Positions 3,301-39,944 of a DNA stretch of 64,000 nucleotides are shown in pieces (the first letter of the stretch is position 1; every line of letters begins with the position of its first letter). Under the pieces are notes generated by a model. The model did not search any database. It saw nothing but the letters and a program-made list of their open reading frames with translations, and was not told the origin of the DNA. The stretch is from positions 96,713,141-96,777,140 of the forward strand of contig NC_090377.1 in the NCBI RefSeq assembly GCF_036365525.1, in the 5' to 3' direction. Source of the stretch: Heterodontus francisci. Its lineage: Eukaryota. The position numbers were made by a program, and so were the translations under genes.

Positions 3301-3401
3301 CCAAAACAGTAGCGCAGAGGTTATGCACGAGTAACCCAGAGACCTGAACTAAAAATCCAGAGAGCATTCGTTCAAATCTCACCATTTGAATTACAACATA
3401 T

Positions 3402-3705
3402 GGCGGTACAGTGGCGCAGTGGTTAGCACTGCAGCCTCACAGCTCCCGGGACCCGGGTTCAATTCTGGGTTCATCCTGTGACCGCGTGGGTTTTCGCCCG
3501 GTGCTGCGGTTTCCTCCCACAGCCAAAGACTTGCAGGTGATAGGTAAATTGGCCATTGTAAATTGCCCCTAGTGCAGGTAGGTGGTAGGGAATATGGGAT
3601 TACTGAAGGGCTAGTATAAATGGGTGGTTGTTGGTCGGCACAGACTCGGTGGGCCGAAGGGCCAGTTTCAGTGCTGTATCTCTAAATAAATAAAATTTTA
3701 AAAAA
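3402..3705 (+). mobile_element. HE1-like tRNA-derived V-SINE
   Basis: A box TGGCGCAGTGG, B box GGTTCAATTC, V-core 'gcgtgggttttc...ggtttcctcccaca', CR1-like tail with (TAAA)n. Confidence 0.88.
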
Positions 3706-4108
3706 AAATTCAGTTTAAAGAAAACTGGAACCAGTAAGTGATCACCAAACTTTTGGATTATCGTAAAAATCCAACTGGTTCACTAATTTCTTCGGGGAAG
3801 GAAACCTGCCATCCTTACTCAGCTTGGCCAACATGCAGTTTCAGTCCCGCATCAATGTAGCTGACTCTGAACTGGCCTCTGAAGTGATCTAGCAAGCCAG
3901 TTATATTAAACTGCTAAGAAAGAGAAGGAATCAATCTGGATGAATCACTCAGCTGCAACCTAAGTATTAAATCGGGACACGACAAAGGCACATCCAACAC
4001 AGTCAACCTTACAAAGTTCGCCTCACCAAATTTGTTTTAATATTCGTTCTTGGGATGTGGCATTGCTGGCAAGGCCAGGATTTATTGCCCATCTCGAGAA
4101 GGTGGTAG

Positions 4109-4311
4109 TATTATGACCAAGGCAGGAGGGAGGCACTGTTAATTCAGTCCCACTTCTCCACAGGTCACAGCATATCAATAAATTTTCACTTAACTAAACA
4201 GCCCATTAGACACTCTATCAGTCCCCAGAATAAAGCACACCAACCAGGTTTCTTACATCAACAACAAAATTAACCCTTTAATATAAAACCAAGTCTTCAC
4301 CAGTAATGAAG

Positions 4312-4345
<34 letters not shown>

Positions 4346-5173
4346 GAATTGAGATATTAAAGCTCCTTATTTATTCCCTAGCCCTCATGCACACGCACAT
4401 ACATCCAAAAACCGGTTAACCAGAAGAAAAGGGATTTTGGTTTACAGCTGTTTCATAGAAATAAAAGGAATTTTTAAAAAACTTAAACTGTAATGATCTG
4501 GAAAGAAGGTCTTTAGTTTGGTGAGATGTCCCAAAGTTGAATAGTTGGATGCCACTAGAAGTCTTTCCAGGCGAGGTTGATGAACAGGCTGTGATGGGTA
4601 GGCATTCGAAGAACTTCAACGGTAGAAGGCTTCACATAGGTCTTCCATCAGGGGTGCAGCAACAGGTGTCAGTTCTCACATTCAATGCAAAAGTCCTTTT
4701 TTAAAGATGCAAGATTTCTGCAAATTCAGGGTTTCTTCAAAAATGCAGGAGGCAACAGTACCACTTCATACAAACTTTTGCTTTTCCAGAACAAGGATTC
4801 TTTACGGAGAGGTAATACTTTTCTGGTTCTTTTTCTGATCTCCAGGCAGGTCAAAATCAAATTCCAATTGCTTGCTTTTGTCCAAATCCACTGGCTTTTA
4901 AAATTCAAAAATGAAACAAAAACCTTCCAGAAACAAGTCACATGCCAAGTCATAAATTCTCTCTTGTCACAAGAGAGGACAGTTCTTAGGTCAAACCCTC
5001 TGCTGGTTTCCTTGAAATTACCTGTTTTCCAATTCAACTTTTGAACTTCCTTTCAAAAACAACTATAAGGTTCAGCTATCTCCAGATGTCTCAATGTCCA
5101 CTGAAATCCTTTCCAGTTTTTAAAAATATAGAATCTCAAGTTTTAACACAAAAAAATGGAAATCTTCGTAACA
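4109..5173. mobile_element. Solo LTR (Gypsy/ERV-like), copy 1
   Basis: Ends TATTATGA...TCGTAACA (decayed TGTTACGA inverted termini); 4-bp TSD GTAG; first ~200 bp homologous to the copy at 8352. Confidence 0.8.
4315..4342. repeat. (TA)n microsatellite inside the solo LTR
   Basis: Direct reading. Confidence 0.95.
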
Positions 5174-8039
5174 GTAGTGAGCCGCCTTCTTGAACTGCTG
5201 CAGTCCATGTGATGGAGGTACATCCACAGTGCTGTTAGGGAGGGAGTTCCAGGATTTTGACCCAGTGACGATGAAGGAATCATGCTTTAGTTCCAAGTCA
5301 GCATGATGTGTGATTTGAAGGGGAACTTGCAGGTGGTGGCATTACCATGCATCTACTGCCCTTGTCCTTCTAGGTGATGGAGGTCGCAGATTTGCAAAGT
5401 GCTGCTGAAGGAGCAGTTGCCAAGGTTCCTTCAACAGCATCTTCCAAACCCACGATTGCTACCACCTGGGACCAGTACCAAAATGAGAGAGGTGTCCCAC
5501 AAACTAATCAAGCAACAGACTGACAAAAGCATGCTAATGGAATCATGCTGGTGTCTGAACTCCTAGGTCACCATCCCTGGGTATCTCCTGTCCCATCAGC
5601 AGCAAATACCCACTGGAGGTGGGGCAGAGTTTCCTCAATATTGACTCTAAACCAAAAAAGACTCATGATTTCAGGTCAAACAAGCACAAGGTAACTTGTA
5701 CTGATTACCACCTACCAACCTCCCTCAGCTGATGAGTCAGTCCTCCTCCATGATCACCATCACTTGAAGGAAGCATTGAGAGCAACAAGGACACAGAATA
5801 TACTCTGGGTGGGGAATATCAATATCCATCACCAACAGTGGCTCGCTAGTATCACCACTGACGTAGTTAGCCAAGTCTTGAAAAACATAGCTGCCAGACT
5901 GCACTTGTGGCAATGAGTGAGGGAACCAACATAAGGAAATAATCTACTTAACCTACTCTTAGTAAATCTACTAGTCACAGAGGCCACTCCCCAAAACAGC
6001 ATTGGTAGATGTGACCACTGCACAATCCTTGTGGAAGCCAAGCCATTTCTTCACATTGAAAACTCCCTCCATCATGTCATGTGGCACTACTACTATGCTA
6101 AATGGGATAGAACAATCTAATAGCTCAAAAATGGACATTCATGAAGCTAGGTAGGGCATCATCAGCAACAGAATTGTATACCACAATCGGTAACCTCATG
6201 GCCAGACGTATCCTTTGCATCTCCATCACCATCAAACCGGATGAACAAAGTTGGTTCAATGAGAAATGTGGACCTGCCAGCCAGGAGAAGCATCAGGTGA
6301 ACCTGAAAATGAGGTGCCAACCCAGGGAAGCTACAACACAGATGACATGCATGTTAATCAACAGAAGCTAATACCACAACCAATGGATCAGGTCAAAGCT
6401 CTGTAATCATGTCATATCCAATCATGAATGGCAATGGACAATTAAAGAACAAACAGGAAGAGAAGATGATATGCCCATCCTCACCCTCAAAGATGCCCAG
6501 CACACGGGTGCACAAAATGAGGCTCCAACATTTGCAATCATCTTCAGCGAGAAGCGAATGATCCTTCATGGATGTCAGTCTTCAGCAAATTTAATTCACT
6601 TCATGTGACATAAAGAAAAGGTTGAATGCACAGACACAGCAAAGGCTATGACTCCCGACAACATCCTGACTGTAATGCTGAAGACCGATGCTCCAGAATG
6701 TGTTGTGTGTCTAGCTAAGCTGTTCCAATACAATGACAATACTGGCATTTACTAGACAATGTGGAAAATTGCCCAGATATGCTATGTTCACAGAAAGCAG
6801 TACAGATCCAACACAGCTTACTTCTAAACAAGAAACTGATGGAAGGAGTTGTCATCAGCCCCATCACGAGCATTTAAACACCAATAATCTGATTACCTTA
6901 TCATAACCTTGTTCAAACATGCATAAACACACTTAAGGCGAGAGGACTACCCTGGACATCAAGATAGCACGAGTTTCTCTGGCAGCATCCTAGGCCCAAC
7001 TATCTTCAGCAGCTTCATCAATGACCTATCCGCCATCATAAAGTCAGAAATTGGGCTGTTCACTGATGATCGTGTAGTGTTCAGTTTCATTCACAACTTC
7101 TCAAGACAATGAAGCAGTCCATTCCCACTGGTAGTAAGACCTGGACAACAGTCAGGTTTGGATAGATAAATGGTATGTAACATTCATGCCATAGGTGTGC
7201 AAGGCAGTGAGACAGCCAAATCATCTTACTTGATGCTGAATGGCGCTTTCACCGCCGAGTTCCCCATCATTAATATCCTGGGGATCACCACTGACCAGAA
7301 ACTCAACTGAATCAGCCACTTAAATGTCACAACCACTAAATATTCTACAATCGGTGGCTCACTGACGTCCCAAAGCCTCTCTACAGCCTACAAGGCACAA
7401 GCCAGGAGCATTATGGGATACTCTCCACTTGCCTGGATGGGTAAAGCTGCAATAACACAGGCTCAACACTAACCAGGTCAAAGCAGTCTGCTTGATCAGC
7501 ACTTCATCCAGTAGCCTAAATATCAACCACTTTCACTACCAGCATATAGTGGTTGCATTGGAAAATATCTTCAGGATTCCTCACAGCAACTTCAAATCCT
7601 GCAAACTCCACCACTTAGAAGGACAAGGGCAGCAGTTGCATGGTAACACCAGCACAATCCAAGGTCCCCCTTCAAGTCACCCACCGTTCTGATTTGGACG
7701 TATATCACCGTTCCTTCATCATCAATGTGTCAACGTCCTGGAACTCCCCACCCAACAGCATGTGGGTGCATCTTCACCATACAGACTGCAGCAGTTCAAC
7801 AAGGTGGCCCATCACCACTTTCTCAGGGCAACTATGGATGGACAATAAATGCTAGCCTAGTCATCAACGCCATATCCTGAGAATCAATTTTAAAAATTGC
7901 AACATTCAGATGCCATTGTATAATTTTTTGGCTTTCTCCCCCACCTTCAACACCGATATTCACAATGGACCTGATGAAAACTAAAAAACTACAAATAGCA
8001 ATAATGCTCTGTAAGTAAAGAGTTCATTTATCAGACAAT

Positions 8040-12139: not shown

Positions 12140-15100
12140 CGAACAAGCACCTCTCTTCGTAAAACAATCTGACAACTGATGACTTGCGTCAACCCATTTT
12201 ATTTTGGAAATTTATTTTCTTTCCAACATTTCTTTTATATTCACGAGATCACTCCTCAACCTCTTTTCTGACACTTTTTGTCGAATGGACATTGTCCCAG
12301 ACAGAATGGTTATCTATGTAGCATTCTGTAGGAAAACTTTTCTCAGATTGCCCCTTATATAATAATTCCTTTAAAATACTCGATAAATATATACCCATAT
12401 CTAGCACTTCGATCAGTGCATGTGTCTCAGCAGCTAAGGTGCTCTTACCTATTCTCTTTATTTTCTTTGATTCCCAGGCTAACAGTCAACGTTTATCATT
12501 TCTTCCCACCAAAAATATAATGAACTCTGCTGTGCTCGAATATCCATCGGGAAGATTAGCGTGTGAGGTGTCACTAAAAATGACTAATTTTATTTCTTCT
12601 GGGTCACCCAGTGCTGGAAACTCGAGTGTACATTTGTCAAAACTCAATCTCTTCAATGTCTTATTTGCTTTCAGCACTTCCCCAACAGGAACATATTTCA
12701 GCATGGTGCTCAATTCTAATACATCATAGCAAGCATCCGGCCTTGTTGGTGTGCACAACCAGTTATACTGCCTGATTAAGCTCATTAACTGGTCTACTTC
12801 TTCCTTGGTTGCAGAGTCTTCCTTTCGTGAGGATCTGGCCCGATTTATTGGGATCCTATTAACATTCTCTAGGTAAGACTGATAATTTAGGGTTACCCCC
12901 AACTTAGTCTGCCTACTATTCAACCCTATATATTTAAAAACTCTGGAAGCCGGACTTCCAATTTTAAATTCCTGCAGAACTTTATCTACCACAAACGTCT
13001 CAACTGCCTCAGATCTTCCCCACAGAAAATCGTCCATGTGCATCAAGAAAATGCCTGCTAGTCTTTCTTCATAGTACCAATAAAACATTGCCGGATCCAC
13101 TTTTACTTGAATACAACCAGCTTTTAGTAGGACGGACCTAACTGAAAAATACCACACCCTGGATGCATCATTTAGCCCTTAAACACACTTGTTTAGCTTC
13201 CATAATTTCCCTTCTATATCTACAGCTTCTTTTGGTGGCTTTAAAAATACTTCCCATTGAAATTTTTCCCCTTGCAAAAATGCTGCTTTGAGGTCAACGG
13301 ACTTACATTCCCATGAATGTGTCGCTAAAAGGGCTAGGAAAATCCTCAAATTTGCTTTTCCTGCTGTTGGGGAGTCCACTCTAACTTCTTGGTCGCCTAG
13401 TCGTTTCTCAAATCCCCGAGCTACAAGTCTGGCCTTCGCTTTATAAGTACCATCGGGAAGTATTTTCTCTGTACAGATCCATCTATGGGACAATGCTGGT
13501 TGTCCTCTATCTGGCACCTCCGTGTATATGCCAAACTCTCTCCAACTGTCAAGCTCTTTTTGCTTTGCATCCTTTATCAATTTACCATCTAACTTGTTAG
13601 TAGCCACTAGAGCTTCTCTATTGTAAGGGTTCCTATTTATTGTGGCACTCCTTGCCTGCTCTCCGGTCCTTGCTCTTGTGAAACCACATCCCCTACTCGA
13701 TTTCCTATCCCTTTCTGGACTGCTACTACTCAACCTGTCCCTCCTACAGACTTCCTTTCATAAGTCCGTGACCTGTTCCTTGGGCTATGATTATCTTCAG
13801 GCCCACTGTCTGAACTTACACTACATTTTCTGGCCTTCCACATTTTCACTTCCTTCTGCCAGTCTATAAGTCTGATATCCTGTCGCTGGTCTTGCACATT
13901 CAGCCAATGTCTGTATTTCCCTGAGGCCTTTCCTGCCCTCCATATAATGGTGAATTCCCTCCATTCACTAGCCCCTTTTGGCATATTTTTATTTATTTAT
14001 TTTATTTAGAGATACAGCACTGAAACAGGCCCTTCGGCCCACCGAGTCTGTGCCGACCAACAACCACCCATTTATACTAACCCTACAGTAATCCCATATT
14101 CCCTATCACCTCCCTACACTAGGGGCAATTTACAACGACCAATTTACCTATCACCTGCAAGTCTTTGGATGTGGGAGGAAATCAGAGTACCCGGTGAAAA
14201 CCCACGCAGACACAGGGAGAACTTGCAAACTCCGCACAGGCAGTACCCAGAATCGAACCCGGGTCTCTGGAGCTGTGAGGCTGCGGTGCTAACCACTGCG
14301 CCACCCTGTGTCACTCTAGTCCCAACTTTCAGTAGTTGGCCTTTGAGAAAAATGGCCTTATCTGGATCTTCACTATCACTTGGTCCACTCTCAGTTAGCC
14401 CATTATCTGCCACAATCTGTTGCTCGCAAAGGTCCAGTGTATGTGTATGCAAAGTACACGGTGCATCATCAGTGTCCATCCACCATTCGTTCAGATTCTG
14501 TCAATGTATAATCAGTGCCAATAAGTCTTGAGGAATGTTATCTAACAGTTTGGTTGCCATGTTGCAAAATCACCATTTTGCCATCAGTGCCTGTAACTTT
14601 TCCTGGGCCTCTCCATTCTTCTTGCCCTTCTCTTTTGTAATACACCGTAACCCCAGTATCAAAATTATTTTCTGATGGCCTGATCCGAGACCTCAAAGCT
14701 CACCTGATTTTTTCTGAAACCTCCGCCTTAATTAATGCTCGTCTCCCTGCATGCATGGCATTCAAATGTTCCGCAAAAATTGAATGAATTGTAGACCCCC
14801 TAAAGCCAGGGGATGATCCCACATTACCGAAGGTATTTTCGGATTCCTGCCATAAACTAATTGACAGGGGCTGTAGCCCCCAACCATTTGAAGTGTGCTT
14901 TTCACACGTTCTGCCCACGCCACAGCAGTAGTCAATTTACAATTTGGCTGGTCTGCTAAAATGTTTTGAAGCATTTTGTCAATCACAGCATGATTTCTCT
15001 TACAAATCCCAATACTAAAAGGACTTTCAGCTGCAATATTCATATGTTCACACCTATGCCTGAGCTCATCATTAGCAAATTCTCCTCCATGGTCAGTTAG

Positions 15101-16740
15101 CAACCTAGTCCGTGCTCCCAGTCCCATTCCTATCCACCTTTCTATTATCTTGTTCACTATTACTTTTTTGTCATCACTATAAATTACCGTCGACTGACTG
15201 AATCTAGTCGCTACGTCTACAAGTGTAGAAGAAACATGTTTCTGTCTTTATCCCATATCTTCAAGTCCCTTGCTAATGGGAAACTCACTATGGGTCGCGG
15301 TGGCGTCCTCCTGTATTTTATTTTACAGATGTCACATTTTTCACTGATATCTTTGATAAGTTTAGTGTAGTCATGATCTATTATCCCTGCATCTTTTAAC
15401 AGAATCTTCAACCTACGACAAGATGGATGTGCAAACTGTCGATGTAGTTTTGAAATAATTTGCCTTTTCTCCTTTAAATCCCAGTCTCCGGATGTCATTA
15501 ATAATTGTTTAACATCCAGCTTAGAGAGGTTAGGTTTCGCTGAAGGAATACAATAACGTCCCGGCTGCGTAAACCACAAAGCTACAGATTTCCCAAAGGC
15601 AATCGCCTTATCATGTTCCATATCCAAATTCATCAGAGCCTTTTTCATAGACAGTTTACTTAACGGCAAAGGTAATTCACTGGATACTACATCCATACTA
15701 ATAAAATGGTTTACCCCTGCTATTTTGCACGGAATTACCACTCTTTTTAGTGATTTCAATGTGTTATCATCCCCAAACCTGAAACAGGTAGAACGGTTAT
15801 ATTCTTTGACCTTATTTCAGTCTCCTCCTTACTCAAAGAACCCATGTAACACCTTAATCAGTCCATTCCACACACTGTGGACGTACACCCACTGTCTAGT
15901 ACCGCGCAACTGAACGAATCTGCGACTAGGACACTCGTTACCAGACTGAAGCTTCTCGTGACCAGTACAATTCCTTTTGATTAGTCAGTAGCGTCATCCT
16001 CGCCTTCTGAACCTTCCACGTCATGTGTCATCTCAAAAACCCTGTTATTCCTTTTTGGACAGTACAACGCATAGTGATACTTTGAGTCACATCGGAAACA
16101 CCTGTGACCACCCCTTGGTTATTCCTGGGGTGCATCCTTCTGCCACAATTATCTAATTCCAGCCGTCTGTGATAGCTGCCAAAAGGGTCTCTATCCTCAT
16201 TCGTTTTGTGTGTGTTTCTCCTTTCGTACTGACGTTTGGGCCCCATACTTGAACAGTCTTGGAAAGCTGCTTGCATTGTATCCTCCATCTTTGGTGTCAC
16301 CGCTGAAGAGCCCATCTGTGCCATGTATGCGGCTGAAAAGGAATTTCTTCTCCAAATTTTTTTGGGGGCGTCAGACATCTGATCAAAAAGCGTATCTCTT
16401 TCTTTGAATCTAACTCCGGTTAATACCAAGAGCCTATCCATGTTTGATATCCTAGCAGAGTCCAACAATTTGAAGGCAAGTACTGATCTAGGAATGTCCA
16501 AGCAGAATCGCTGCAACCTTGCATTTTTCTAAATTTATCAAAGTCCGACCACACCTCATAGGGACTCAATAAGTCATCTTTCATATAAATTTTATCCATA
16601 AATTTCAAGAGTTTGTCCAAACCTTCCTCATTGTCCAAATGATGAGCCTCTAGCTCTGAGAACACTTTGCCCCTAATCTTGCTTCTGGTGGGAAGTGAAA
16701 GTACAAGGGCTATTCCTTGCTTCCTTTTTAGTAAAGACGC
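12140..16740 (-). mobile_element. Ty1/Copia LTR-retrotransposon internal region (gag-PR-IN-RT-RH), frameshifted, no LTRs visible
   Basis: Zn knuckle CFRCDSKYHYALYC (~16060-16100); protease VLDSGC (~15890); IN HRQFAH...CDIC and TDHGGEF; RT KAKARLVARGF, VDLKAAFLQG, HMDDF; RNase H FSDTSHAN. IN precedes RT. Confidence 0.92.
13986..14306 (-). mobile_element. HE1-like V-SINE inserted in Copia pol
   Basis: Reverse complement of the 3402-3705 family, with A/B boxes and (TAAA)n tail. Confidence 0.9.
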
Positions 16741-18418: not shown

Positions 18419-19857
18419 ATGAGCATAATCATGAAAAAGGACAAAGATAAAACAGGAGTAAAAGTTCTAAATTGGGGGAAGGTAAATTTTAAGAATCTGA
18501 GAGGTGACCTGGCGAAAGTGGACTGGATACAGCTACTTGAAGGAAGATCAGTGGCAAACCAGTGGGACGCATTCAAAAGCGAGATACTATAGGCACAACG
18601 TAGGCATATCCCCACAAAGATAAAGGGTGGTACTGCCAAATCTAGAACCCCCTGGTTATCTAGAAACTGATAGGGTAAGATAAAGCAGAAAAAGAAAGCT
18701 TATGACGATCACAAAAATCTTCATACTTTAGAAAGCCTAGAGCAGTATAGAAAGTGCAGGGGTGAAGTAAGAAAGGAAATTAGAAAAGCAAAGAAAGGAC
18801 ATGAAAAATTATTGGCAGGTAAAATCAAGGAAAACCCGAAGATGCTTTATCAGTACATTAAGAGCAAGAGGATAACTAAGGAAAGGGTAGGGCCTATCAG
18901 AGATGTACAAGGCAGCTTATGCGTGGATGAAGAAGATGTGGGCAGGATTCTTAATGAGTTTTTTGTCTCTGTCTTCACAAAGGAGAGGGTTGATGTGGAA
19001 TGTAGACATTGTAGTTAAAGAGGAGCATGAAATATTAGATATAATAAGCATAATGAAAGAGGAAGTACAAGAGGGTCTGAGATCCTTGAAAGTGGATAAA
19101 TCGCCAGGGCCGGATGGATTGCATCTTAGGTTGTCAAGGAAGCCAGGGAGGAATTAGCAGATGCGCTAAGGATCATCTTCAAATCCTCACTAGATACAGG
19201 AGAGGTACCAGACAATTGGCGGTCTGCGAACGTTGTACCATTGTTTAAAAAGGGTACAAGGGATAGGCCAAACAGTTACAGGCTGGTCAGTCTGACCTCG
19301 GTGATGGGTAAATTGTTAAAATCTATTCTGAGGGACAGGATAAACTGCCATTTAGAAAGGCATGGATTAAACAGGAACAAAAACAAGAAATGCTGGATTC
19401 ACTCAGCAGGTCTGGCAGCATCTGTGGAAAGAGAAGCAGAGTTAACGTTTCGGGTCAGTGACCCTTCTTCGGAACTGACAAATATTAGAAAAGTCACAGA
19501 TTATAAACAAGTGAGGTGGGGGTTGGGCAAGAGATAACAAAGGAGAAGGTGCAGATTGGACCAGGCCACATAGCTGAACAAAAGGTCACGGAGCAAAGGC
19601 AAACAATATGTTAATGGTGTGTTGAAAGACAAAGCATTAGTACAGATTAGGTGTGAATATACTGAATATTGAACAGCAGCAAGTGCAAACCTGAAGAAAA
19701 ACAACCTGAAAAAAACAGTGGGTAAGCAAACTGAACAAACTAAGATGAAATGAAATAAATGCAAAAAAAGATTGTAAAAAATGTAAAAAGGAATGTAAAA
19801 AAAAAGGAAGACAAAATATCTAAAAATGACTAAAAATGAAAGTAAAGTGGGGGGCTG

Positions 19858-20858
19858 TCATGCTCTGAAATTATTGAACTCAATGTTCAGTCCGGCAGGC
19901 TGTAGTGTGCCTAATCGGTAGATGAGATGCTGTTCCTCGAGCTTGCGTTGATGTTCACTGGAACACTGCAGCAATCCCAGGACAGAGATGTGAGCATGAG
20001 AGCAGGGGGGAGTGTTGAAATGGCAAGCAACCGGAAGCTCAGGGTCCTGCTTGCGGACTGAGCGGAGATGTTCCGCAAAGCGGTCACCCAGTCTGCGCTT
20101 GGTCTCCCCAATGTAGAGGAGACCACACTGTGAGCAGCGAATACAGTAAACTACATTGAAAGAAGTACAAGTAAATCGCTGCTTCACCTGAAAGGAGTGT
20201 TTGGGGCCTGGGATAGTGAGGAGAGAGGAGGTAAATGGGCAGGTATTACACCTCCTGCGATTGCAAGGGAAGGTGCCCTGGGAAGGGGACGAGGTGGTGG
20301 GGGTAATGGAGGAGTGGACCAGGGTGTCGCGGAGGGAACGATCCCTTCGGAATGCTGACAGGGGAAGGGAGGGGAAGATGTGACTGGTAGTGGCATCACG
20401 CTGGAGGTGGCGAAAATGGCGGAGGATGATCCTTTGGATATGGAGGCTGGTGGGATGAAAAGTGAGGACAAGGTGAACCCTGTCACGGTTCTGGGAGGGA
20501 GGGGAAGGGGTGAGGGTAGAGGTGCGGGGAATGGGTCGGACACGGTTGAGGGCCCTGTCAACCACAGTGGGGGGAAATCCTCGGTTGAGGAAAAAGGAGG
20601 TCATATCAGAAGCACCGTCATGGAAGGTAGCATCATCAGAGCAGATGCGTCGGAGACGGAGAAACTGGGAGAATGGAATGGAGTCCTTACAGGAGGTAGG
20701 GTGTGAAGAAGTGTAGTCGAGGTAGCTGTGGGAGTCAGTGGGCTTATAATGGATATTGGTAGACAACCTATCCCCAGAGATGGAGACAGAGAAGTCGAGG
20801 AAGGGAAGGGAAGTGTCAGAGATGGACCATGTAAAGGTGAGAGAAGGGTGGAAATTGG
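19858..20858 (-). pseudogene. PLE ORF fragment: RT C-terminus/thumb + GIY-YIG endonuclease; uninterrupted but 5'-truncated
   Basis: LPFLD, YKPTDSHSYL, CNRRRCNTC, NVVYCIRC...LYIGETKR. Confidence 0.92.
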
Positions 20859-21337
20859 ACATCAACGCAAGCTCGAGGAACAGCATCTCATCTACCGATT
20901 AGGCACACTACAGCCTGCCGGACTGAACATTGAGTTCAATAATTTCAGAGCATGACAGCCCCCCACTTTACTTTCATTTTTAGTCATTTTTAGATATTTT
21001 GTCTTCCTTTTTTTTTTACATTCCTTTTTACATTTTTTACAATCTTTTTTTGCATTTATTTCATTTCATCTTAGTTTGTTCAGTTTGCTTACCCACTGTT
21101 TTTTTCAGGTTGTTTTTCTTCAGGTTTGCACTTGCTGCTGTTCAATATTCAGTATATTCACACCTAATCTGTACTAATGCTTTGTCTTTCAACACACCAT
21201 TAACATATTGTTTGCCTTTGCTCCGTGACCTTTTGGTCAGCTATGTGGCCTGGTCCAATCTGCACCTTCTCCTTTGTTATCTCTTGCCCAACCCCCACCT
21301 CACTTGTTTATAATCTGTGACTTTTCTAATATTTGTC

Positions 21338-21374
21338 AGTTCCGAAGAAGGGTCACTGACCCGAAACGTTAACT
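21338..21374 (+). ncRNA. Minimal hammerhead-like ribozyme motif in the PLE pseudo-LTR (mirror copy at 19440-19476, minus strand)
   Basis: AGUU-CCGAAGA-A-GGGUC ACU GACCC-GAAAC-GUU-AACU: stem I AGUU/AACU, stem II GGGUC/GACCC, loop-less palindromic stem III ACGU. Confidence 0.6.
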
Positions 21375-22784
21375 CTGCTTCTCTTTCCACAGATGCTGCC
21401 AGACCTGCTGAGTGAATCCAGCATTTCTTGTTTTTGTTTCAGATTTCCAGCATCCGCAGTATTTTGCTTTTATTTTATGGATTAAACAGGGATAGTCAAT
21501 GTGGATTTGTTAAGGGAAGGTCATGTCTTACTAACTTAACTGAGTTTTCTGAGGAAATAACAAGTAGGATTGATGAGGGTAGTGCAGTGGATGTGGTCTA
21601 CATGGATTTCAGTAAGGCATTTGACAAGGTCCCACATGGTAGACTGGTCAGAAAAATGAAAGCCTATGGGATACAGGGGAGTGTAGCAGGTTGGATCCAG
21701 AATTGGCTCAGGGCCAGGAAACAAAGGGTAGTAGTCAACGGATGTTATTGTGAATGGAAAGCTGTTTCCAGTGGCGTTCCACAGGGCTCAGTGTTGGGTC
21801 CCTTGTTGTTTTTGGTATTTATTAATGATTTGGACTTAAATGTGCGAGGCACGATTGGGAAATTTGCCGATGACACAAAAATTGGCTGTGTAGTTGACAG
21901 TAAAGAGGATAGCCGTGGTCTCCATAAAGATATCGATGGTTTGGTTGAGTGGGCGGAAAAGTAGCAAATGGAATTCAATTCAGAAAAGTGTAAGATAATG
22001 CATTTGGGGAGGGCAAATAAAGCGAGGGAATACACAATAAACAGGAGAATATTGAAAGGGCTGGAAGAAGTGAGAGACCTTGGAGTGCATGTCCACAGGT
22101 CCCTGAAGGTGGCAGGACAGGTAGAGTGGTGAAGAAAGCATATGGAATGCTTTCCTTTATTAGCCGAGATATAGAATTCAAAAGCAGGGATGTAATGCTG
22201 GAACTGTATAAAACGCTAGTTCGGCCGCAGTTGGAGTATTGCCTACAGTTCTGGTCACCACAATACAGAAAGGACATAATTGCTCTGGAGAGAGTACAGA
22301 GGAGATTTACAAGAATGTTGCCAGGACTCGAAAGTTGCAGCTATGAGGAAAGATTGGATAGGCTAGGGTTGTTTTCCTTACAACAGAGGAGGCTGAGGGG
22401 TGACTTAATAGAGGTGTACAAAATTATGAGGGGCCTAGATAGAGTAGACAGGAAGGACCCGTTTCCCTTAGTGGAGAGGTCAATTACCAGGGGGCACAGA
22501 TTTAAGGTGATAGGTAGAAGGATTAGAGGAGACGTGAGGAAAAATCTTTTCACCCAAGAGGGTGGTGGGTGTCTGGAATTCACTGCCAGGAATGGTGGTG
22601 GAGACAGAAACCCTCAATTCTTTCAAAAAGGTACCTGGACATGCACCTGAAGTGCCGTGACTGGCAAGGCTATAGACCAGGTGCTGTAAGGTGGGATTAG
22701 ATAGGACATGACGGGTTGAATGGCCTCCTTCTGTGCCGTAATTTTTCTATGGTTCAGCAAGGCTATGGTTACCCTCATCAACCC

Positions 22785-23831: not shown

Positions 23832-26800
23832 TGTCATAGAGTTATACAGCACAGAAACAGGCCCTTCAGCCCACTGTGTCTGTGCCGGCTATCAAGCCGA
23901 TCTATCCTAATCCCATTTTCCAGCACCTGGCCCGTAGCCTTGTATGCTATGGCGTTTAAATGCTCATCTAAATACTTCTTCAATGTTGTGAGGGGGTTCC
24001 TTCAGGCAGTGTGTTCCAGATTCCAACCACCCTCTGGGTGAAAGAATTTTTCCTCAAATCCCCTCTAAACCTCCTGCTCCTTACCTTAAATCTATGCCCC
24101 CTGGTTATTGACACCAGGGAAAACCTTTCTTCCTATCTACCCTATCTATGCCCCTCATAATTTTCTATACCTCAATCAGGTCCCCCCTCAGCCTTCTCTG
24201 CTCTAAGGAAAACAACCCAAGCTTATCCAGTCTTCTTCATAGCTGAAACGCTCCAGCCCAGGCAACATCCTGGTTAATCTCCTCTGCACCCTCTCCAGTG
24301 CAATCACATCCTTCCTATAGTGTGGCGACCAGAACTGTCCAGTTGTGGCCTAACTAGCGTTTTATACAGCTCCATCATAACCTCCCTGCTCTTATATTCT
24401 ATGCCTCGGCTAATAAAGGCAAGTATCCCATATGCCTTCCTAACCATCTTACCTACCTGTGCTGCTGCCTTCAGTGATCTATGGACAAGTACACCAAGGT
24501 CCCTCTGACACTCTGTACTTCCTATGGTCCTACCATCCATTCGATATTCCCTTGCCTGGTTAGTCCTCCCAAAATGCATCACCTCACACTTATCAGGATT
24601 AAATTCCATTTGCCACTGCTCTGCCCATCTTACCAGCCCATCTAGATCATCCTGTAATCTAAGGCTTTCCTCCTCACTACTTACGACGTCACCAAATTTT
24701 GTGTCATCTGCGAGCTTACTGATCATATGTCCTATATTCACGTTTAAATCATTAATGTACACTACAAGCAGCAAGGGTCCCAGCACCGATCCCTGCGGTA
24801 CACCACTGGTCACAGGCGTCCAATCACAAAAACAACCCTCAACCGTCACTCTCTGCCTCCTGCCACTAATCCTATTTTGGTTCCAATTTGCCAAATTGCC
24901 CTGGGTTCCATGGGCTTCTACCTTCTTGACCAATCTCCCATGCAGGACTTTATCAAAAACCTTAACGAAGTCCATGTAGACTACATCAACTGCTTTACCC
25001 TCATCTACACACCTAGTCACCTCCTCGAAAAATTCAATCAAATTTGTTAGACATGATCTCCCCCTGACAAAGCCATGCTTACTATCCTTGATTAATCCCA
25101 GCCTCTCCAAGTGGAGATTAATACTGTCCCTCAGAATTTTTTTGAATAATTTCCCTACCACTGATGTAGGACTCACTGGCCTGTAATTACCTGGTTTATC
25201 CCTACTACCCATCTTGTATAATGGTACCACATTCGCTGTCGTCCAGTCCTCTGGGACTTCTCCTGTGGCCAGAGAGGTTTTGAAAATTTGTGTTCGAAAC
25301 CCCTGCAATCCCCTCCCTTGTATCACATAGCAGCCTGGTGTACATCTTATCTGGGCCTGGGGAATTATCCACTTTTAAGCCTGCTAAAACCACTAATACC
25401 TGCTCCCTTTCAATGCTAATTTGTTCAAGTATATCACAATCCCCCTCCCTGATCTCTACACCTACATCGTCCTTCTCCATAGTGAACACAAATGAAAAGT
25501 AATCATTTAAAACCTCACCTGCGTCCTCCGGCTCCACACGCAGATTGCCACTTTGGGCCTTAGTGGGCCCTATTCTTTCCCTGGTCATCCTCTTGCCTTT
25601 AATATACTTATAAGACACCTTGGAAATTTCCTTCATCTTGCCCACCAGTGTTTTTTCATGCCCCCTCTTTCCTCTCCTAATTTCTTTTTTTTTTTAACTA
25701 CCCCCCTACACTTTCTATACTCCTCTACGGCCTCCTTTTTATCCTTATCCAATCCTCTATGTCCCTTGACACCCAGGGTTCCCTGGACTTATTAGTCCTA
25801 CCCTTCACCTTTACGGGAACATGATGGCCCTGAACTCTCACTATTTCATTTTTGAATGACTCCCCTGGTCTGATGTAGACTTTCCTACAAGTAGCTGCTC
25901 CCAGTCCAATTTGGCCAGATCCTGTTCTATCTTAGTGAAATCTGCCACCCTCCAATTCAGTACCTTTATTTCCAGTCCACCTTTGTCCTTTTCCATTACC
26001 ATCTTAAATCTTACAGAGTTATGGTCACTATCCCCAAAATGCTCCCCCACTGACACTTCTAGCACTTGTCTGGCTTCATTCCCTGAGATTAGGTCCAGTA
26101 CCGCCCCTTCTCTTGTAGGACTTTCTACGTGCTGGCTCAAAAAGCTCTCCTGGATGCACTTTAAGAATTCCACCCCCTTTGAGCCTTTTGCACTAAGACT
26201 ATCGCAGTTAATATTGGGGAAGTTGAAATCCCCTACTATTGTTACCCTATTATTTTTACACCTCTCTGAGATTTGCCTACATATCTGCTCCTCTATCTCT
26301 CCCCGATTGTTTGGAGGCCTGTAGTACACTCCCAGCAAAGCGATTGCCCCCTTTTTGTTTTTAATTTCTACCCATATGGCCTCATTTGAGGAACCTAAGA
26401 TATCATCCCTCCTTACTCCAGTAATTGACTACTTGATCAATAATGCAATGCCACCTCCTCTTTCACACACACCCCCTGTCACGCCTGAACATTCTATACC
26501 CAGGAATATTAAGCTGCCAGTCCTGCCCTTCTCTCAACCATGTCTGTGATAGCAATAATATCATATTCCCAAGTGTTAATCAATGTGCTCAATCACCTGC
26601 CTTACTTTCAAGACTCCATGCGTTAAAATAGATGCAATCTCGCCTTGCATTATTTGCTTGTGCCTTAACAGGTCTATATTTGCTCTGCCTTCCAGACTGA
26701 CTTAGTTTCTCTTCTATATTTGGCTGTGCATCACCCCCTACTGTACCTCCACTCTGTATCCCATCCCCCTGCCAAATTAGCTTAAACCTCCCGCAACAGC

Positions 26801-29984: not shown

Positions 29985-32900
29985 GGGCTGAATTTTAACT
30001 CTTGGACCTGCTTGCAGTGGGGACGTCAGCAGAAGGTCAGGAATCCGAATGCTGGTGGAGTGGCTCTTTCCATGGCTCTTTAACTGAGCCATGGTATTAC
30101 CATCTCACTTCCAGAGATCCTGACCAATCAGAATGTGTGGGTGTGATCAAGATCTGCACTTGACTGTTCAAGCTTCAGTATTTAAGGGGATCCTGGCAAG
30201 GGACAGAATGGAAGCATTCTACAACTGGCAACTGAGAGACAACATCTGGAGTGATGGAGTCTCAGGATGGAAGGCTGCACCCCCGTTCTCTGAAACATCC
30301 CCGGAGATCATGCTGTGGCCTATAAGGGTATGCAGAGAAATTTTGTTCCAGCAGACTGAAAGAGGAAGCTTGGCTCTGAAAGCAATTAGGTGTGGCTCAG
30401 GTGGTGGGCAGCAGCAGTGTGGTCCCTCACTCATGAATAAAGTGCTGCAACAGTTTAATGACCTCAAAAGGGAAGGAAAGGTGAGTGGCATGCCACATTC
30501 AAGTGTTCACTCTGACTTCCCCAGCCTTATTCTGCACATCACTCCTCAGACCAACACACCTTGCATTCCTCTCTCTCAGGCACATCCTCACCTCCTTTTC
30601 TCATCAGCCACTGACAGCCACCTTCATCTTGACACTTTCTCACATCCAGCCCTCACAGTCACCCTCCACAAATGTTGTCATTCCATTCTCTCAACACATT
30701 TCATTTCTCACACCCATAACTCTTTTCTTTATCTACTTGCAGAAAAGATGCAGAACACCAGGGAGAGGCAGAGAATTGGGGTTGCCCTCCAGTCATAGCC
30801 ACCGTGACAGCAGTGGAGGACATAACACTGGAGATAAGCAAAGTCTTGGAATGCATGGCCATTTGCGATGGACAGATGAGGGACATCACAGCCACACGGC
30901 GTACCAGAGTCACTCGCTTTGACTTGATGCCAGCCGCCCACTGAAATACACTTTTATCTTGTCAGTTCGAATTCATGTATTTCTTCTCCCCAAACACCTG
31001 CAAGCATTCCTCTGGAGCTGGTGTTGGAGGAGGAAGACGCCTTAAAGGAGGTTGTGTACTCTGTGGAAGCACCGTCACATGACTGATGCGTACCCTCCAC
31101 CAACTCAAATACACACACCTTGGTAGGACCTCCAAGACAAGTAGTAGGGTTGTCACATGGTAAGCCACACATCAGAAGTGAGCAGGAGCAGCAGGGGAGA
31201 GTCCCCATCGGAGGGCGCAGGGCACGACAAGCACTGCTCAGCAGGACACAGATGCTCATCCTTGGTGGTCATCAACAAAGAGGACTATTCTGGAGCAACA
31301 GCAGACACTATATGAGGTTCTGTTAGCATTTCCAGAGAGAGAGATTGCAGGAGTCCATCTCCACCATGAATACCACGATGTCTAAAGTATTTGTGCTGAA
31401 GTGATGACCTGCATGGAGCATCAGACGTGGTAGGTAACCGGGTGCATGCTAGCCCTGACCAATGGCCTGCACACACTGTCTGCCACTTTAAATATCATGC
31501 AGCAAAGCCTCACCTTGGCCATTAAGCGCCTGACTGAAGTGCTCTTCAGCTCTTGGCTGGCAGGAAAATGCAGGTGGTCAGTGAGAGGGAAGATGGAGAA
31601 ATGGCACATGGAAGAGTCAAAGTCATACAGCACAGAAACAGGCCCTTCAGCCCACAGTGTCATAGAAACATAGAAAAGAGGAGCAGGAGTAGGCCATTCG
31701 GCCCTTCGAGCCTGCACCGCCATTCAATACGATCATGGCTGATCATCCAAACTCAGTACTCTGTTCCCGCTTTCTCCCCATATCCCTTGATTCCTTTAGC
31801 CCCAAGAACTTTTTCTAACTCTTGCTTGAATATATTTAATGATTTGGCCTCAACTGCTTTCTGTGGTAGAAAATTCCACAGGTTCACCACTCTCTGGGTG
31901 AAGAAATCCCTCCTCATCTCAGTCCTAAATGGCTTACCCCTTATCCTTAGATTGTGACCCCTTGTCCTGGACTGCCCCGCCATCGGGAACATTCTTCCTG
32001 CATCTAGTCTGTCCAGTCCTGTTAGAATTTAGTAGGTTTCTATGAGATCCCCTCTATGAGATGCTGGCCATCAAGCCTATCTATTCTAATCTCATTTTCC
32101 AGCACTTAGCCCGTAGCCTTATATGCCATGGCGTTTCAAGTGCTCATCTAAATACTTCTTAAATGTTGTGAGGGTTCCTGCCTCTACCATCCCTTCAGGC
32201 AGTTTTCCAGATTCCAACCACCCTCTGGGTGAAAATTTTTTCCTCAAATCCTCTCTAAACCTCTCGCCCCTTACCTTACATCTATGTCCGCTAGTTATTG
32301 ACACCTCGGCTAAGGGAAAACCTTTCTTCCTATCTACCCTATCTATGCCCCCCATAATTTTGTATACCTCAATCAGGTCCCCCCTCAGCCTTCTCTGCTC
32401 TAAGGAAAACAACCCTAGACTATCCAATCTCTCTTCATAGCTGAAATGCTCCAGCTCAGGCAACATCCTGGTTAATCTCCTCTGCACCCTCTCCAGTGCA
32501 ATCACATCCTTTCTATAGTGTGGCGACCAGAACTGTAGACAGTACTCCAACTGTGGCCTAACTAGCATTTTGTACAGCTCCATCATAACCTGCCTGCTCT
32601 TATATGCTATGCCTTGGCTAATAAAGGTATCCCATATGCCTTCCTAACCATCTTACCTACCTGTGCTGCTGCCTTCAGTGACCTATGGACAAGTACACCA
32701 AGGTCCCTCTGACACACTGTACTTCCTATTGTCCTACCATCCATTGTATATGGGAACTCCGCTCAAAGCACACCCACTCTTTCCCACCCCTCCCCTCTTA
32801 CCCGCGTCCTTCAGTCAGAGTTCCACATACCACTTCCTGTCCCGATGGTAGAGTCAGCCCCTATATAGGTGCAGGCAGGGCAGTCTTTGTGAGGCCCTCA

Positions 32901-34783
32901 GGGGCCCCTAAACCCAGAGGACGTTGGCCACGAGCAACTGAGCAGTCACAACAGGGGTAAGAGCAGTGTTCCTCTAGCTCTGCTGAAGCTAAAGGGGTAG
33001 CGCCATATAGGAGTAATAGGAACAAGAGGAGAAAGCCTTGCGCAAAATGGGGTATGAAGACGAGCAATGGGCGTCAGAGAGGGATGGATTGTTGACTGTG
33101 GAGCTGCTTTGTGCTGGGGCTTGGCACAGTAGGGTTCAGAACTGGTGTACCAGATGGCTACACTGCCTCTGTTCAGCTGAAGCATACCTTAAATGAGTCT
33201 GTCTTGTGCATCCCTAGCAGCTAAGTTTACTGCTGCACATCAGGCTACTCCCATTGCTCCTCCTCTGAAGATGCAGATCAGTTCTCACCTTCCTTCTCCT
33301 GTAGCTCTAGTCCTTTCTGTTGCGCTACGTTGTGCAAGGCACAGCAGACCACTATCATTCTGAACACCCTTGCTGAGGCATACTGAACAATGCTCCCAGA
33401 TCTGTCCAGGCACCTGAATCGCATCTTCAACAACCCAATGGTTTGCTCCATGACCGCTCATGGCTCCAGCTATACCCTTTCTCTGTAACAGCAGGAGGGC
33501 TCCTCACAGGTGCTATCAGCCACATCCACAGAGGGTAGCCCTCATCTCCAAGGAGTGATCCACTGACTCTGCTTGGAGGTGCCAAGATCTATGGCAGATT
33601 TGACCGGTGCACAATGAAGGCATAATGGCAGCCTCCTGGGTATCATGTGCAGACATGCATAATAATCTTGGAGTGGTTACATACCAGCTTAACATTAATG
33701 GAGTGGAATTCCTCTCGATTGATGAATACTGCTGGTTGATCTGAGGGTGCCTTGATGGTCACATTTGTGCAGTCTATGACTCCCTATACCTGTGTGAATC
33801 CAGCCAGAGCAGCAAATCAGAGGGTCCACTCATTCTAACTGACCTCACAGGAGCGAAGCGGACGCAAGTGGCAGCGTCAGCAAATATGGCATTGGTCACC
33901 TGGGAGATGCACTTGTATGCAGCAGATTGAGAGATTCTGCAGATGTTACCAGCAGATCCCTGGAAAGAGCCAGAAGCAAAGAAATTCAGGGCTGCGGTGA
34001 CCTTGACCAGTATGAGCAATGTGTGCCCAGATAGTCTACTTGAAAGGAGGTCTTGTTCCAGAAGGTTGCAAATGTTACCAACGTCCTGCCATTGTCTGTT
34101 ACCAATGTCTGAGCCTCCTGAAGCACTGATGCTTAGCTATGTCCAGGAAGCTCATCCTCTGCCTCTATAACCTTGTGTGTTGGGTGTATTGCTGCCTGCA
34201 AGCTGGAGCACTGTGTTCATCCCCACTGTACTATGAAATGGCAGGTGGCTGTGGAGAAGGCTGCTTCTGATGGTGTTGCTGGAGTTGCAGAAGTGGCTTC
34301 CATGCTGTTGAGAAGGCTGACAGGTGGGAAGTGCAGATCAAAATCAAAAAAATCCAAGATAGCAGAAATGACATCCAAAATCTAGGAAATCCCCTCCAAA
34401 GCAGTGAAAGCACACTCTCAGAAGCAGTTTTGTGAGCAAAAGCCTTTCACTTAAGCAAAGAAGCAACTAATTCCAATCCCCGTTGTCCTCTCACATTTGT
34501 TCAACCTGGTGAGTTTCAGACAGCCTGGGAAATCCGTGCACTGGCAGTTAAAGCCAGAAATCAAAGTTAAAGACGTGGTCAATTGACTTTATCATATGTT
34601 AACTGCAGACCCGCCTGTCCCATCAGGGTTTCCTGCACACTAACATACGTGCACGAGATTATACGAGTCAATTGCAGAAGTCAGTGGGTTCCTGCTGGCT
34701 TCTTGACACGTCGTCATTTTTTGCTTCTTTAACCTCCCACACTCACTGACACCAGCTCAAGGTGGCAAGTTAAAATTCAGCCC
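29985..34783. mobile_element. Decayed autonomous PIF/Harbinger transposon 1
   Basis: Perfect 16-bp TIR GGGCTGAATTTTAACT; flanks GTT/ATT (3-bp TSD with CpG decay); Myb/SANT-like remnant on + (~30265-31500) converging on a DDE transposase on - (~33230-34170, VKVTAALNFFASGSFQ). Confidence 0.9.
31620..32750 (-). mobile_element. Two nested CR1 3' fragments inside Harbinger 1
   Basis: RT C-terminus LVRPQLEYCLQFWSPH; second tail (31660-32063) inserted in the first; outer copy closely matches 23832-24545. Confidence 0.88.
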
Positions 34784-36265: not shown

Positions 36266-36451
36266 AAATACTTTTAAGCCATTTTCAGAGCTTTGGATAT
36301 ATGATTGGAAGCACCAGGGCACAGTTACAGTACAAATTAGAATTTGAAAAGCAACATTCAAAAAACATTCAATATCCTAAAACAAAAACATAACAGTTGA
36401 ACAGCAACGCCATCCTTATTGCCAAGAATCAACACCATTCTTCTTGCCTTC

Positions 36452-39400
36452 CCTAATGTCCTTTAGGGAAGGAAATCTGCTGTCCTTACCTGGTCTGGCC
36501 GACATGTGACTCCAGACCCACAGCAATGTGGTTGACTCTTACATGCCCTCTGAAATAGCCCAGCAAGCCACTCAGTTGTATCTAACTGCTATGAAGTCAA
36601 TAAAAAGGAATGAAACCAGACGGACCACCCGGCATCGACCTAGGCACCGGAAACGACAAGGGCAAACCCAGCCTCGTCGACCCTGCAAAGTCCTAACATC
36701 TGGGTGCTTGTGCCAACGTTGGGAGAGCTGTCCCACAGACTAGTCAAGCAACAGCCTGACCTAGTCATACTCACAGAATCATAACTTACAGACAATGTCC
36801 TAGACACCACCATCACCATCCCCGGGTATGTCCTGTCCCACCGGCAGGACAGACCCAACAGAGGTGGCAGCACAGTGGCATACAGTAGGGAGAGTGTTGG
36901 CCTGGGAGTCCTCAACATTGACTCCAGACCCCATGAAGTCTCATGGCATCAGGTCAAACATAGGCAAGGAAACCTTCAGCTGATTACCACCTACTGCCCT
37001 CCCTCAGCTGAGGAGTCAGTACTCCTCCATGTTGAACACCACTTGGAGGAAGCACTGAGGGTGGGGGACTTCAATGTCCATTACTAAGAGTGGCTCGGTA
37101 GCACCACTACTGACTGAGCTGGCCGAGTCCTAAAGGACATAACTGCTAGACTGGGTCTGCAGCAGGTGGTCAGGGAACCAACAAGAGGGAAAAACATACT
37201 TGACCTCGTCCTCACCAATCTGCCTGCTGCAGATGCATCTGTCCAAGACAGTATTGGTAGGAGTGACCACTGCACAGTCCTTGTGGAGACGAAGTCCCGC
37301 CTTCACATTGAGGATACTGTCCATTGTGTTGTGTGGCATTATCACCATGCTAAATGGGATAGATTTCGAACAGATCTAGCAATGCAAAACTGGGCATCCA
37401 CGAGGCGCTGTGGGCCATCAGCAGCAGCAGAATTGTACTCAACCACAATCTGTAACGTCATGGCCCGGCATATCCCCCACTCTACCATGAGTCCAGGAGA
37501 TCAACCCTGGTTCAATGAAGAGTGCAGGAGGGCATGCCAGGAACAGCACCAGGCATACCTCAAAATGAGGTGTCAACCTGGTGAAGCGACAACACAGGAC
37601 TACTTGTGTGCCAAACTGCGTAAGCAGCATGCAATAGAAAGAGCTAAGCGATCCCATAACCAATGGATCAGATCTAAGCTCTGCAGTCCTGCCACATCCA
37701 GCCGTGAATGGTGGTGGACAATTAAACAACTAACTGGAGAAGGTGGTTCCACAAATATCCCCATCCTCAATGATGGGGGAGCCCAGCACATTAGTGTGAA
37801 AGACAAGGCTGAAGCATTTGCAACAATCTTCAGCCGGAAGTGCCGAGTTGATGATCCATCTTGGCCTCCTCCTGAAGTCTCCAGCAACACAGATGCCAGA
37901 TTTCAGCCAATTCGATTCACCCCGTGTGATATCAAGAAACGACTGAAGGCACTGGATACTGCAAAGGCGATGGGCCCTGAAAATATTTCAGCAATAGTAC
38001 TGAAGACCTGTGCTCCAGACTTGCCGCGCCCCTAGCCAAGCTGTTCCAGTGCAGCTATAACACTGGCATCTAACCAGTAATGTGGAAAATTGCCCGGGTA
38101 TGTCCTGTACACAAAAAGCAGGACCAGTCCAACCAGGCCAATTACCGCCCCATCAGTCTACTCTCAACCATCAGTAAAGTGATGGAAGGTGTCATCAACA
38201 GTGCCATCAAGCAGCACTTGCTTAGCAATAACCTGCTCAGTGAAGCTCAGTTTGGGTTCCGCCAGGGCCACTCAGCTCCTGACCTCATCACAGCCTTGGT
38301 TCAAACATGGACAAAAGATCTGAACTCAAGAGGTGAGGTAAGAGTGACTGCACTTGATATCAAGTCAGCACTTGACCGAGTATGGCATCAAGCAGCCCTA
38401 GCAAAACTAGAGTCAATGGGATTCAGGGGGAAAGCTCTCTGCTGGTTAGAGTCCTACCTGACACAAACAAAGATGGTTCTGGTTGTTGGAGGTCAATCAT
38501 CTGAGCTCCAGGACATCACTGCAGGAATTCCTCAGGGTAGTGTCCTCGGCCCAACCATCTTCAGCTGCTTCATCAATGACCTTCCTTCAATCATAAGGTC
38601 AGAAGTGGGGATGTTCGCTGATGATTGCACAATGTTCAGCACCATTCGTGACCCCTCAGATAATGAAGCAGTCAGTGTAGAAATGCAGCAAGACTTGGAC
38701 AATATTCAGGCTTGGGTTGATAAGTGGCAAGTAACATTTGTGCCATACAAGTGCCAGGCAATGACCATCTCCAACAAGAGAGAAACTAACCATCTCCCCA
38801 TGACATTCAATGGCATTACCATCGCTGAATCCCCCACTATCAATATCAATTGACCAGAAATTGAACTGGAGTAGCCATATAAATACCATGGCTACAAGAG
38901 CAGGTCAGAGGCTAGGAATCCGGCAGTGAGTAACTCATCTCCTGACTCCCCAAAGCCTGTCCACCATCTACAAGGCACAAGTCAGGAGTGTGATGGAATA
39001 CTCTCCACTTGCCTGGATGGGTGCAGCTCCAACAACACTCAAGAAGCTCAACACCATCCAGGACAAAGCAGCCTGCTTGATTGGTACCCCATCTACCAAC
39101 ATTCACTTCCTCCACCACCGACGCACAGTGGCAGCAGTGTGTACCATCTACAAGATGCACTGCAGCAACGCACCAAGGCTCCTTGGACAGCACCTTCCAA
39201 ACCCGCGACCTCTACCAACTAGAAGGACAAGCGCAGCAAATGCATGGGAACACAACCACCTGCAAGTTCCCCTCCAAGCCACACACCATCCTGACTTGGA
39301 ACTATATTGCTGTTCCTTCACTGTCGCTGGATCAAAATCCTGGAACTCCCTTCCTAACAGCACTGTGGGTGTACCTACCCAACATGGACTGCAGCGGTTC

Positions 39401-39500
39401 AAGAAGGCAGCTCACCACCACCTTCTCAGGGGCAATTAGGGATGGGCAATAAATGCTGCCTAGCCAGCGACGCCCACGTCCCATGAATGAATAAAAAAAA
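36452..39500 (+). mobile_element. LINE-A, best-preserved copy (leader, Arg-rich N-terminus, APE, RT, 3' tail); a few stops and frameshifts
   Basis: ILTES, GDFN, SDH (APE); YRPISLL, QFGFR, GIPQGSVLGP, MFADD (RT); ends 'catgaatgaataaaaaaaa'. Confidence 0.93.
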
Positions 39501-39860: not shown

Positions 39861-39944
39861 CTTCCTTTGGCATCTCTGGAATCAACAATCGTAGCACCTA
39901 AAGCTTCTATTAACATTTCTGCACAATTTTCATGGTCATTTATT
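39861..39944 (-). CDS. ANKRD44: ANKRD44 exon INDHENCAEMLIEALGATIVDSRDAKGR
   Basis: TTACAG|A acceptor, AG|GTAGG donor; 84 nt, phase 2/2. Confidence 0.93.

Follow-up and report, generated by a model that had tools for sequence, protein, structure and literature searches.

Within the 64 kb of Heterodontus francisci DNA analyzed here (the window), an old copy of a LINE at 3305-7895 (copy 1) is fronted by a tRNA-type head carrying an A box and a B box, and the ORF of a younger copy at 36449-39500 (copy 2) is depleted of T-runs on its coding strand. This combination of a tRNA-type head with strand-specific T-run purging suggests that a coding RNA of 3.3 kb may be transcribed by Pol III. We lean, if slightly, toward reading copy 1 as an old full-length representative of an abundant Zenon-type LINE family of elasmobranchs with a SINE-type head of its own, from which Pol III would read the whole element into an RNA translated independently of a cap.

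LINEs are usually regarded as Pol II units and SINEs as non-coding Pol III units. If the reading is true, a successful high-copy family uniting a Pol III head with a working ORF would make this division less sharp, would provide a natural test case both for how uncapped Pol III RNA is translated and for selection acting against terminators in coding sequence, and would open a route to SINEs unlike the published model, in which the head is added after deletion. The features on which the analysis rests are as follows.

3305..3401, forward strand: tRNA-type head of copy 1, a putative type-2 Pol III promoter region (A/B pair, short similarity to HE1 heads, weak fold)
3310..3320, forward strand: A box, TAGCGCAGAGG, one mismatch to the textbook consensus
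3370..3378, forward strand: B box, GTTCAAATC, exact match to the textbook consensus
3402..3714, forward strand: nested younger HE1-type SINE, foreign to the LINE, 83.6% identical to 14304-13985
3715..3915, forward strand: SINE-body-like 5' leader of the LINE; 3779-3915 is colinear with 36449-36590, and 3750-3779 matches the loose-end consensuses of other copies
3916..4032, forward strand: decayed ORF start with the basic N-terminal extension and first APE strand; maps to 36591-36697 and is supported by translation
4033..5467, reverse strand: later insertion, recognized by sequence comparison, of a 3' fragment from a further copy of this LINE in inverted orientation, plus a forward piece at 5420-5467
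4110..5173, about 1.06 kb: solo-LTR-like element nested in the 4033-5467 insertion, with a 5-bp target duplication at 4105-4109 and 5174-5178
5468..7895, forward strand: decayed remainder of copy 1 (APE, RT, C-terminus, 3' UTR and A-rich end), 66-68% identical to copy 2, with AATAAA at 7844
36449..39500, forward strand: copy 2, younger and 5'-truncated inside the leader, with a broken single APE-RT ORF from the ATG at 36591 to the stop at 39439

Head, leader and ORF of the LINE

The two boxes named in the initial annotation are both present, in the right place and on the forward strand, and are separated by 49 nt. Scanning both strands of the window with textbook consensus patterns (A box with at most one mismatch, exact B box, 25-60 nt apart) returned three pairs, at 3310/3370, 3412/3457 and 14303/14258, of which the latter two are heads of HE1-type SINEs; the expected number is 0.42 pairs in 128 kb, which corresponds to about 0.001 in 300 nt of a single strand. 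ARAGORN called no tRNA gene and Rfam gave no tRNA match, and both tools miss the HE1 heads too. Around the A box, the head of copy 1 bears a short, partial similarity to the heads of HE1-type SINEs, and no HE1 body sequence follows it. A CCAGAGA unit is repeated within the head (3340-3365) and may lie behind its longer A-to-B spacing, which is 34 nt in HE1. Folding z-scores (-2.5, which is weak, for the head, -2.6 and -0.8 for the leaders of copies 1 and 2, and -0.4 for the tail) were not counted as support.

Once the nested SINE is removed, the leader is colinear with that of copy 2, as the initial annotation had claimed: 3779-4027 aligns with 36449-36697 at a score of 184, against a maximum of 41 in 300 shuffles, and 171 of 235 positions (73%) are identical. 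The name HE1 is provisional for this SINE; by eye, its tail resembles the CR1 tails printed in PMC7245038. The earlier figure of about 430 nt between head and APE was too large, as the ATG-equivalent (~3916) lies about 300 nt from the head and the first APE strand (~4013) about 395 nt. Nor does the leader run straight on into the APE, which in copy 1 is split by the 4033-5467 insertion, with the ORF resuming at ~5468. The short forward piece at 5420-5467 beside the inverted fragment looks like a twin-priming inversion, and a relative of the solo-LTR-like element, 72% identical, starts at 8354.

Copy 2 has a single ORF of 894 codons, in which about 32 residues, many of them basic, precede the APE; the RT matches Pfam RVT_1 (E 3e-35), and the APE and C-terminus are colinear with the full-length relative P0016. 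The nearest protein matches come from sharks (Heptranchias, Heterodontus and Pristiophorus), where they are wrongly annotated. The 3' UTR holds AATAAA at 39448 and 39490 followed by poly(A), and an A-tail is found at 39493-39500 and also at the 49441 copy; other fragments of the LINE lie at 11030, 18421, 50843 and 61524. Adding the upstream part of copy 1 (about 160 nt) and small deletions to the 3052 nt of copy 2 gives an element of about 3.3 kb. The leader of copy 2 contains four upstream ATGs. An upstream ORF of 17 codons at 36456-36509 is in frame with the main ORF, ends in ATG-TGA and may matter for translation.

Sequencing reads carry the leader beyond the point at which copy 2 is truncated. 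Alignment to copy 2, at a likeness of 80%, covered four of the 24 runs listed. In run X21, for which 333,455 raw reads aligned, the depth is about 33,000 near the 3' end, declines to about 5,700-5,900 where the ORF starts, a gradient of 5' truncation, and stands at about 8,000 in the leader, with no drop there. In the same run, 3722 reads have loose ends before 36449, and the consensus of these ends agrees with copy 1 at 19 of the 23 junction-proximal letters (3757-3779); the consensus from run X1 agrees at 25 of 30 (3750-3779). The core of this upstream sequence is identical across all four runs, the outermost seven letters of the consensuses vary, and no other upstream partner occurs at the ORF start among the loose ends listed, which are the best-supported ones. 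Because reads of the family continue upstream into sequence like that of copy 1, we take the leader to be the 5' UTR of the family, reaching at least to 3750. A TTTT at 3751, pointed out in the initial annotation, is indeed present in copy 1; since none of the four loose-end consensuses of other copies carries it, it looks specific to that copy.

The loose ends reach 30 letters upstream; the stretches 3386-3401 and 3715-3749, about 50 nt in all, lie beyond, as do the boxes. A 5' end with internal A and B boxes spaced as in a tRNA, the hallmark of a SINE2-type head, is found in one LINE copy of the window, which agrees with the earlier statement that a single copy keeps the head. The further claim, by which the element itself begins with the head, holds indirectly, through the upstream reads to within about 50 nt of the head, the leader-to-tail derivatives and the avoidance of T-runs, while its direct part, the boxes, is seen in that one copy. 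We consider it very probable that the head belongs to the LINE family.

A one-off juxtaposition would instead place an old SINE head, possibly HE1-like, before a copy truncated near 3750, by chance or by a single template switch, and the true 5' end of the family would then be something else. Such an event would account for a head on only one window copy, for the variable outermost letters of the loose-end consensuses and for a head-leader link that is broken by the nested SINE. It is also compatible with the lack of TSDs: the initial annotation had proposed checking for TSDs that enclose head and ORF, and none was found around copy 1 or three other family copies (4/4 negative). The resemblance to HE1 heads near the A box is part of the reason why we give this alternative any weight. 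It nevertheless calls for a chance placement of about 0.001 and for a SINE head with no HE1 body behind it, it leaves the family-wide purging of T-runs and the SINE-sized derivatives of leader and tail unexplained, and it makes a coincidence of the total of about 3.3 kb, which is the size of full-length Zenon elements (3.06-3.74 kb, as given in the accessible part of PMC6740152). We regard it as unlikely.

More improbable still is that the family is an ordinary LINE with two ORFs and that both copies in the window lack an ORF1 and a promoter situated further upstream. Bivalve partner LINEs mostly have an ORF1 (8/9, in the accessible part of PMC11481361), and the reads extend 30 nt upstream of 36449 and no further, which would leave room for such an arrangement. 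Against it, the leader adjoins the ORF in the reads, elasmobranch Zenon elements are described without ORF1 (available text of bioRxiv 10.64898/2026.01.13.699120), and the closest full-length relatives (P0009, P0016, P0019 and P0031) start 13-28 residues from the APE motif, three of them (P0009, P0016 and P0031) on contigs of only 3.3-3.8 kb.

Searches of public collections gave few relatives of the family. A 23-nt pattern from the leader had no match in viral, metagenome or prokaryote collections, and searches with the translated leader frames and the N-terminal extension had none either. A protein-based search found no locus in viral contigs and four in metagenomes, of which only L001, which lacks its 5' end, is of a close type. 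Dataset X15 (contigs, whose RNA nature is a guess) has high depth in leader and tail and was not counted as expression, and two metatranscriptomes, X19 and X20, contain a small share of the words of the window (0.12 and 0.07).

T-runs and the choice of polymerase

Oligo-T terminates Pol III (accessible text of PMC4494074), and a coding RNA made by Pol III should therefore avoid T-runs on its sense strand. Under a null that preserves the protein, the copy 2 ORF has no T4 where 4.8 are expected (P 0.005) and six T3 where 23 are expected (P<0.001). When its own codons are permuted, the expectations become 2.4 for T4 (P 0.058) and 15 for T3 (P 0.001), and A4 is normal (10 versus 9.5). With a dinucleotide shuffle, P for T4 is 0.13; under the strictest nulls (P 0.058; P 0.13), T4 depletion taken by itself falls short of significance. 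Bias in the Phe codons (TTT/TTC 5/14, P 0.22) is not significant, and a 157-codon segment at 11172 falls below testable length.

The same tendency appears in a comparison of families, with five T4 in 10.1 kb of eight family segments versus 24 in 5.9 kb of six CR1 segments; four of the five family T4 could be placed against copy 2, which does not have them. Six of eight control sets (three CR1, an I-like ORF2, a Penelope-like and a copia-like set) show no depletion. Of the remaining two, L004 shows a mild depletion with either null (P 0.012-0.030), and L001 (1-1747), a metagenome contig with a related single-type ORF and a missing 5' end, is depleted under one (T4 2 versus 6.6) and is itself a relative of the studied family. 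In Zenon-1_Hmel, by eye, about seven runs of T4 or longer occur in about 2.6 kb (supplementary figure of PMC6740152). Because the copies share ancestry, the tallies amount to roughly one independent test. The depletion is real, though as evidence it is indirect and concerns one lineage.

The canonical CR1/HER1-like copies used as controls lie at 23950-26428 (-), 19130-22650 (+), 60019-60882 (+), 32119-32643 (-) and 40560-41398 (-). Copia-like LTR remnants at 12486-16730 (-), with weak rve and RVT_2 matches, contain the HE1-type SINE nested at 14304-13985 and abut a fragment of the studied LINE at 16744, and a 346-aa open stretch at 19858-20898 (-) is Penelope-like, with a weak GIY-YIG match. 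By eye, the window also holds possible ankyrin-repeat exons at ~2770-2900 and 39860-39950 (-) and a possible Harbinger-like transposase fragment at 33774-34136 (-), for which there is no Pfam match.

The head could also be a feature of the family, acquired as the 5' half of a SINE by template switching, with the full-length RNA being made by Pol II, from leader activity or from read-through of host genes. The boxes would then serve short derivatives only, or be vestigial, and the scarcity of T-runs would have another cause. An AATAAA stands about 40 nt ahead of the poly(A) in all three ends examined, LINEs in general are Pol II units (PMC5786205, in the text available), a capped RNA would ease translation, and some T-run depletion is seen in two of the eight controls as well. 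This explanation has more difficulty with a depletion that is strand-specific and present at codon junctions, that is not seen in CR1 copies from this genome and, by eye, from the head-less Zenon-1_Hmel, and for which a Pol II element has no obvious reason, since nothing evident would make it shun T3 or T4. We hold transcription by Pol II to be a tentative but serious possibility.

Transcription by Pol III, the preferred reading, has difficulties of its own. The AATAAA ahead of the poly(A) is just as compatible with Pol II, and the four upstream ATGs count against it, as does the translation that an uncapped RNA would need. We infer the polymerase used, the mode of translation and the promoter activity of the LINE from the DNA letters, and it is in this sense that the head would work as the promoter of the element.

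Leader-to-tail derivatives and the proposed mechanism

Short deletion derivatives, which the initial annotation had suggested looking for, are present in the reads as joints between leader and tail. The main joint, from 36576 to 39426, is flanked on both sides by CTCAG repeats and is supported by 607 reads with 192 start places, in all four runs and two organisms; a second, from 36541 to 39426, has 80 reads (4/4 runs), and a third, from 36590 to 39359, has 57 (3/4 runs). The last of these falls exactly before the ATG, so that the start codon and nearly the whole ORF are gone. The presence of several breakpoints implies recurrent deletion from the LINE, although the main derivative could instead be an ancestral SINE that donated the 5' half of the LINE. 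With the upstream part of copy 1 added, a derivative would measure about 365 nt, the size of a SINE; it would probably carry the A and B boxes and thus be a SINE by structure.

These observations can be arranged into a life cycle. TFIIIC would bind the internal A and B boxes, and Pol III would initiate just upstream of the A box and read the whole element of about 3.3 kb, which the purging of T4 terminators from the coding strand may enable it to do. Translation of the uncapped RNA would proceed at a low level, past the short upstream ORFs, and the protein would bind the 3' tail and insert the RNA by target-primed reverse transcription. As the inserted RNA would include an internal promoter, each full-length copy would therefore carry its own. 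Template jumps between short repeats of leader and tail would yield the head-and-tail derivatives of about 365 nt. Whether all of this holds together, as an autonomous vertebrate retrotransposon that Pol III transcribes end to end, with a T-purged ORF, uncapped translation and the birth of SINEs in one step by deletion, is in our estimation an evenly balanced matter.

Relation to known elements

By structure, the studied LINE is a Zenon-type LINE of the CR1 group. It shares with CR1-Zenon elements a single APE-RT ORF that has a short basic extension at its N-terminus, the lack of an ORF1, a poly(A) tail, a length of about 3.3 kb, within the range of ~3.1-3.7 kb, and a shark host. According to the accessible text of a recent preprint (bioRxiv 10.64898/2026.01.13.699120), full-length Zenon elements occur in sharks and rays, have poly(A), a tail unique to Zenon among the CR1 group, and are not yet annotated in repeat databases; ORF1 is missing from all Zenon elements, those of sharks and rays included, and also from Rex1 and clade B L2. 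The initial annotation was right that ORF1 is absent here and had treated the absence as unusual, a premise that is weak; the missing ORF1 is ordinary, since it has already been published for the Zenon group. The main text of the same preprint contains no occurrence of 'tRNA', 'promoter' or 'polymerase'.

The RT is 46% identical to the single-ORF proteins P0009 and P0016, 36-42% identical to a clade with the Papilio protein P0025 (one of the best distant protein matches, E 3e-31, and by eye a match to Zenon-1_Hmel), and 29-31% identical to the CR1 copies of the window. A phylogeny of the RT, recommended earlier as a means to assign the clade, was built as a 52-row FastTree and a 26-row IQ-TREE from protein matches of 800-1350 aa and six chosen proteins, leaving out three host chimeras and without a labelled reference set. 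The trees separate the RT from the window CR1, in the FastTree by a long branch, and neither of them joins it to the lepidopteran Zenon clade or sets it apart from that clade.

Canonical CR1 elements, represented by the HER1-like window copies, have in common with the studied LINE a CR1-group APE-RT protein, 5' truncation and the lack of TSDs, and differ from it in that only the studied LINE is depleted of T-runs. They carry an esterase ORF1 or descend from elements with one (bioRxiv 10.64898/2026.01.13.699120, in its accessible text). Identity with canonical CR1 was rejected, as the RT identity of 29-31% stands against a criterion of ~60% and ORF1 is absent. For the leader, an origin from a MetaSINE was rejected, with no match by eye to the 66-bp Meta domain consensus printed in PMC7245038, and the central domains of DeuSINE and UCON3 SINEs given in the same source are likewise not seen in it by eye, apart from a short resemblance to part of Deu. 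The leader motif had no match in the full texts searched or in the supplements of four papers, except for short unrelated ones in one of these supplements.

A tRNA-headed Zenon element or an autonomous LINE transcribed by Pol III was not found in the literature searched, which was mostly open-access, with Repbase and Dfam outside its scope. The combination of a tRNA-type head with strand-specific T-run purging was thus not found in print in the sources accessible to us; the supplements of the preprint may include the head. The Ingi and Vingi elements, of a different clade, are presumably LINEs with tRNA-like or SINE-like heads.

Lepidopteran Zenon elements differ from the studied LINE in that their 5' end is described without a Pol III promoter (PMC6740152, in the part available) and in that T-runs are kept in Zenon-1_Hmel. 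Persaeus, a SIDE derived from Zenon, lacks tRNA homology and a Pol III promoter according to the accessible text of the same paper. It has in common with the shark derivatives the recurrent internal deletions that join the 5' UTR to the ORF's end and the 3' UTR, at 5-bp direct repeats, whereas the shark derivatives would carry A and B boxes.

With tRNA-derived SINEs (SINE2, including the bipartite ones derived from RTE and Vingi; PMC5786205, in the text available) the studied element shares an A/B head, a body, a LINE-type 3' tail and few internal T-runs. Those SINEs are short and non-coding, whereas the head described here fronts an autonomous ORF of 2.85 kb, and only the deletion derivatives could qualify as SINEs. 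The available text of PMC5786205 also reports a tRNA-like sequence inside an autonomous LINE, RTE-1_DAn, which belongs to a different clade and for which it states neither a position nor a Pol III function. In Kojima's model, as set out in that text (PMC5786205), a head is added to a LINE that has already been deleted, whereas here it sits on a full-length LINE.
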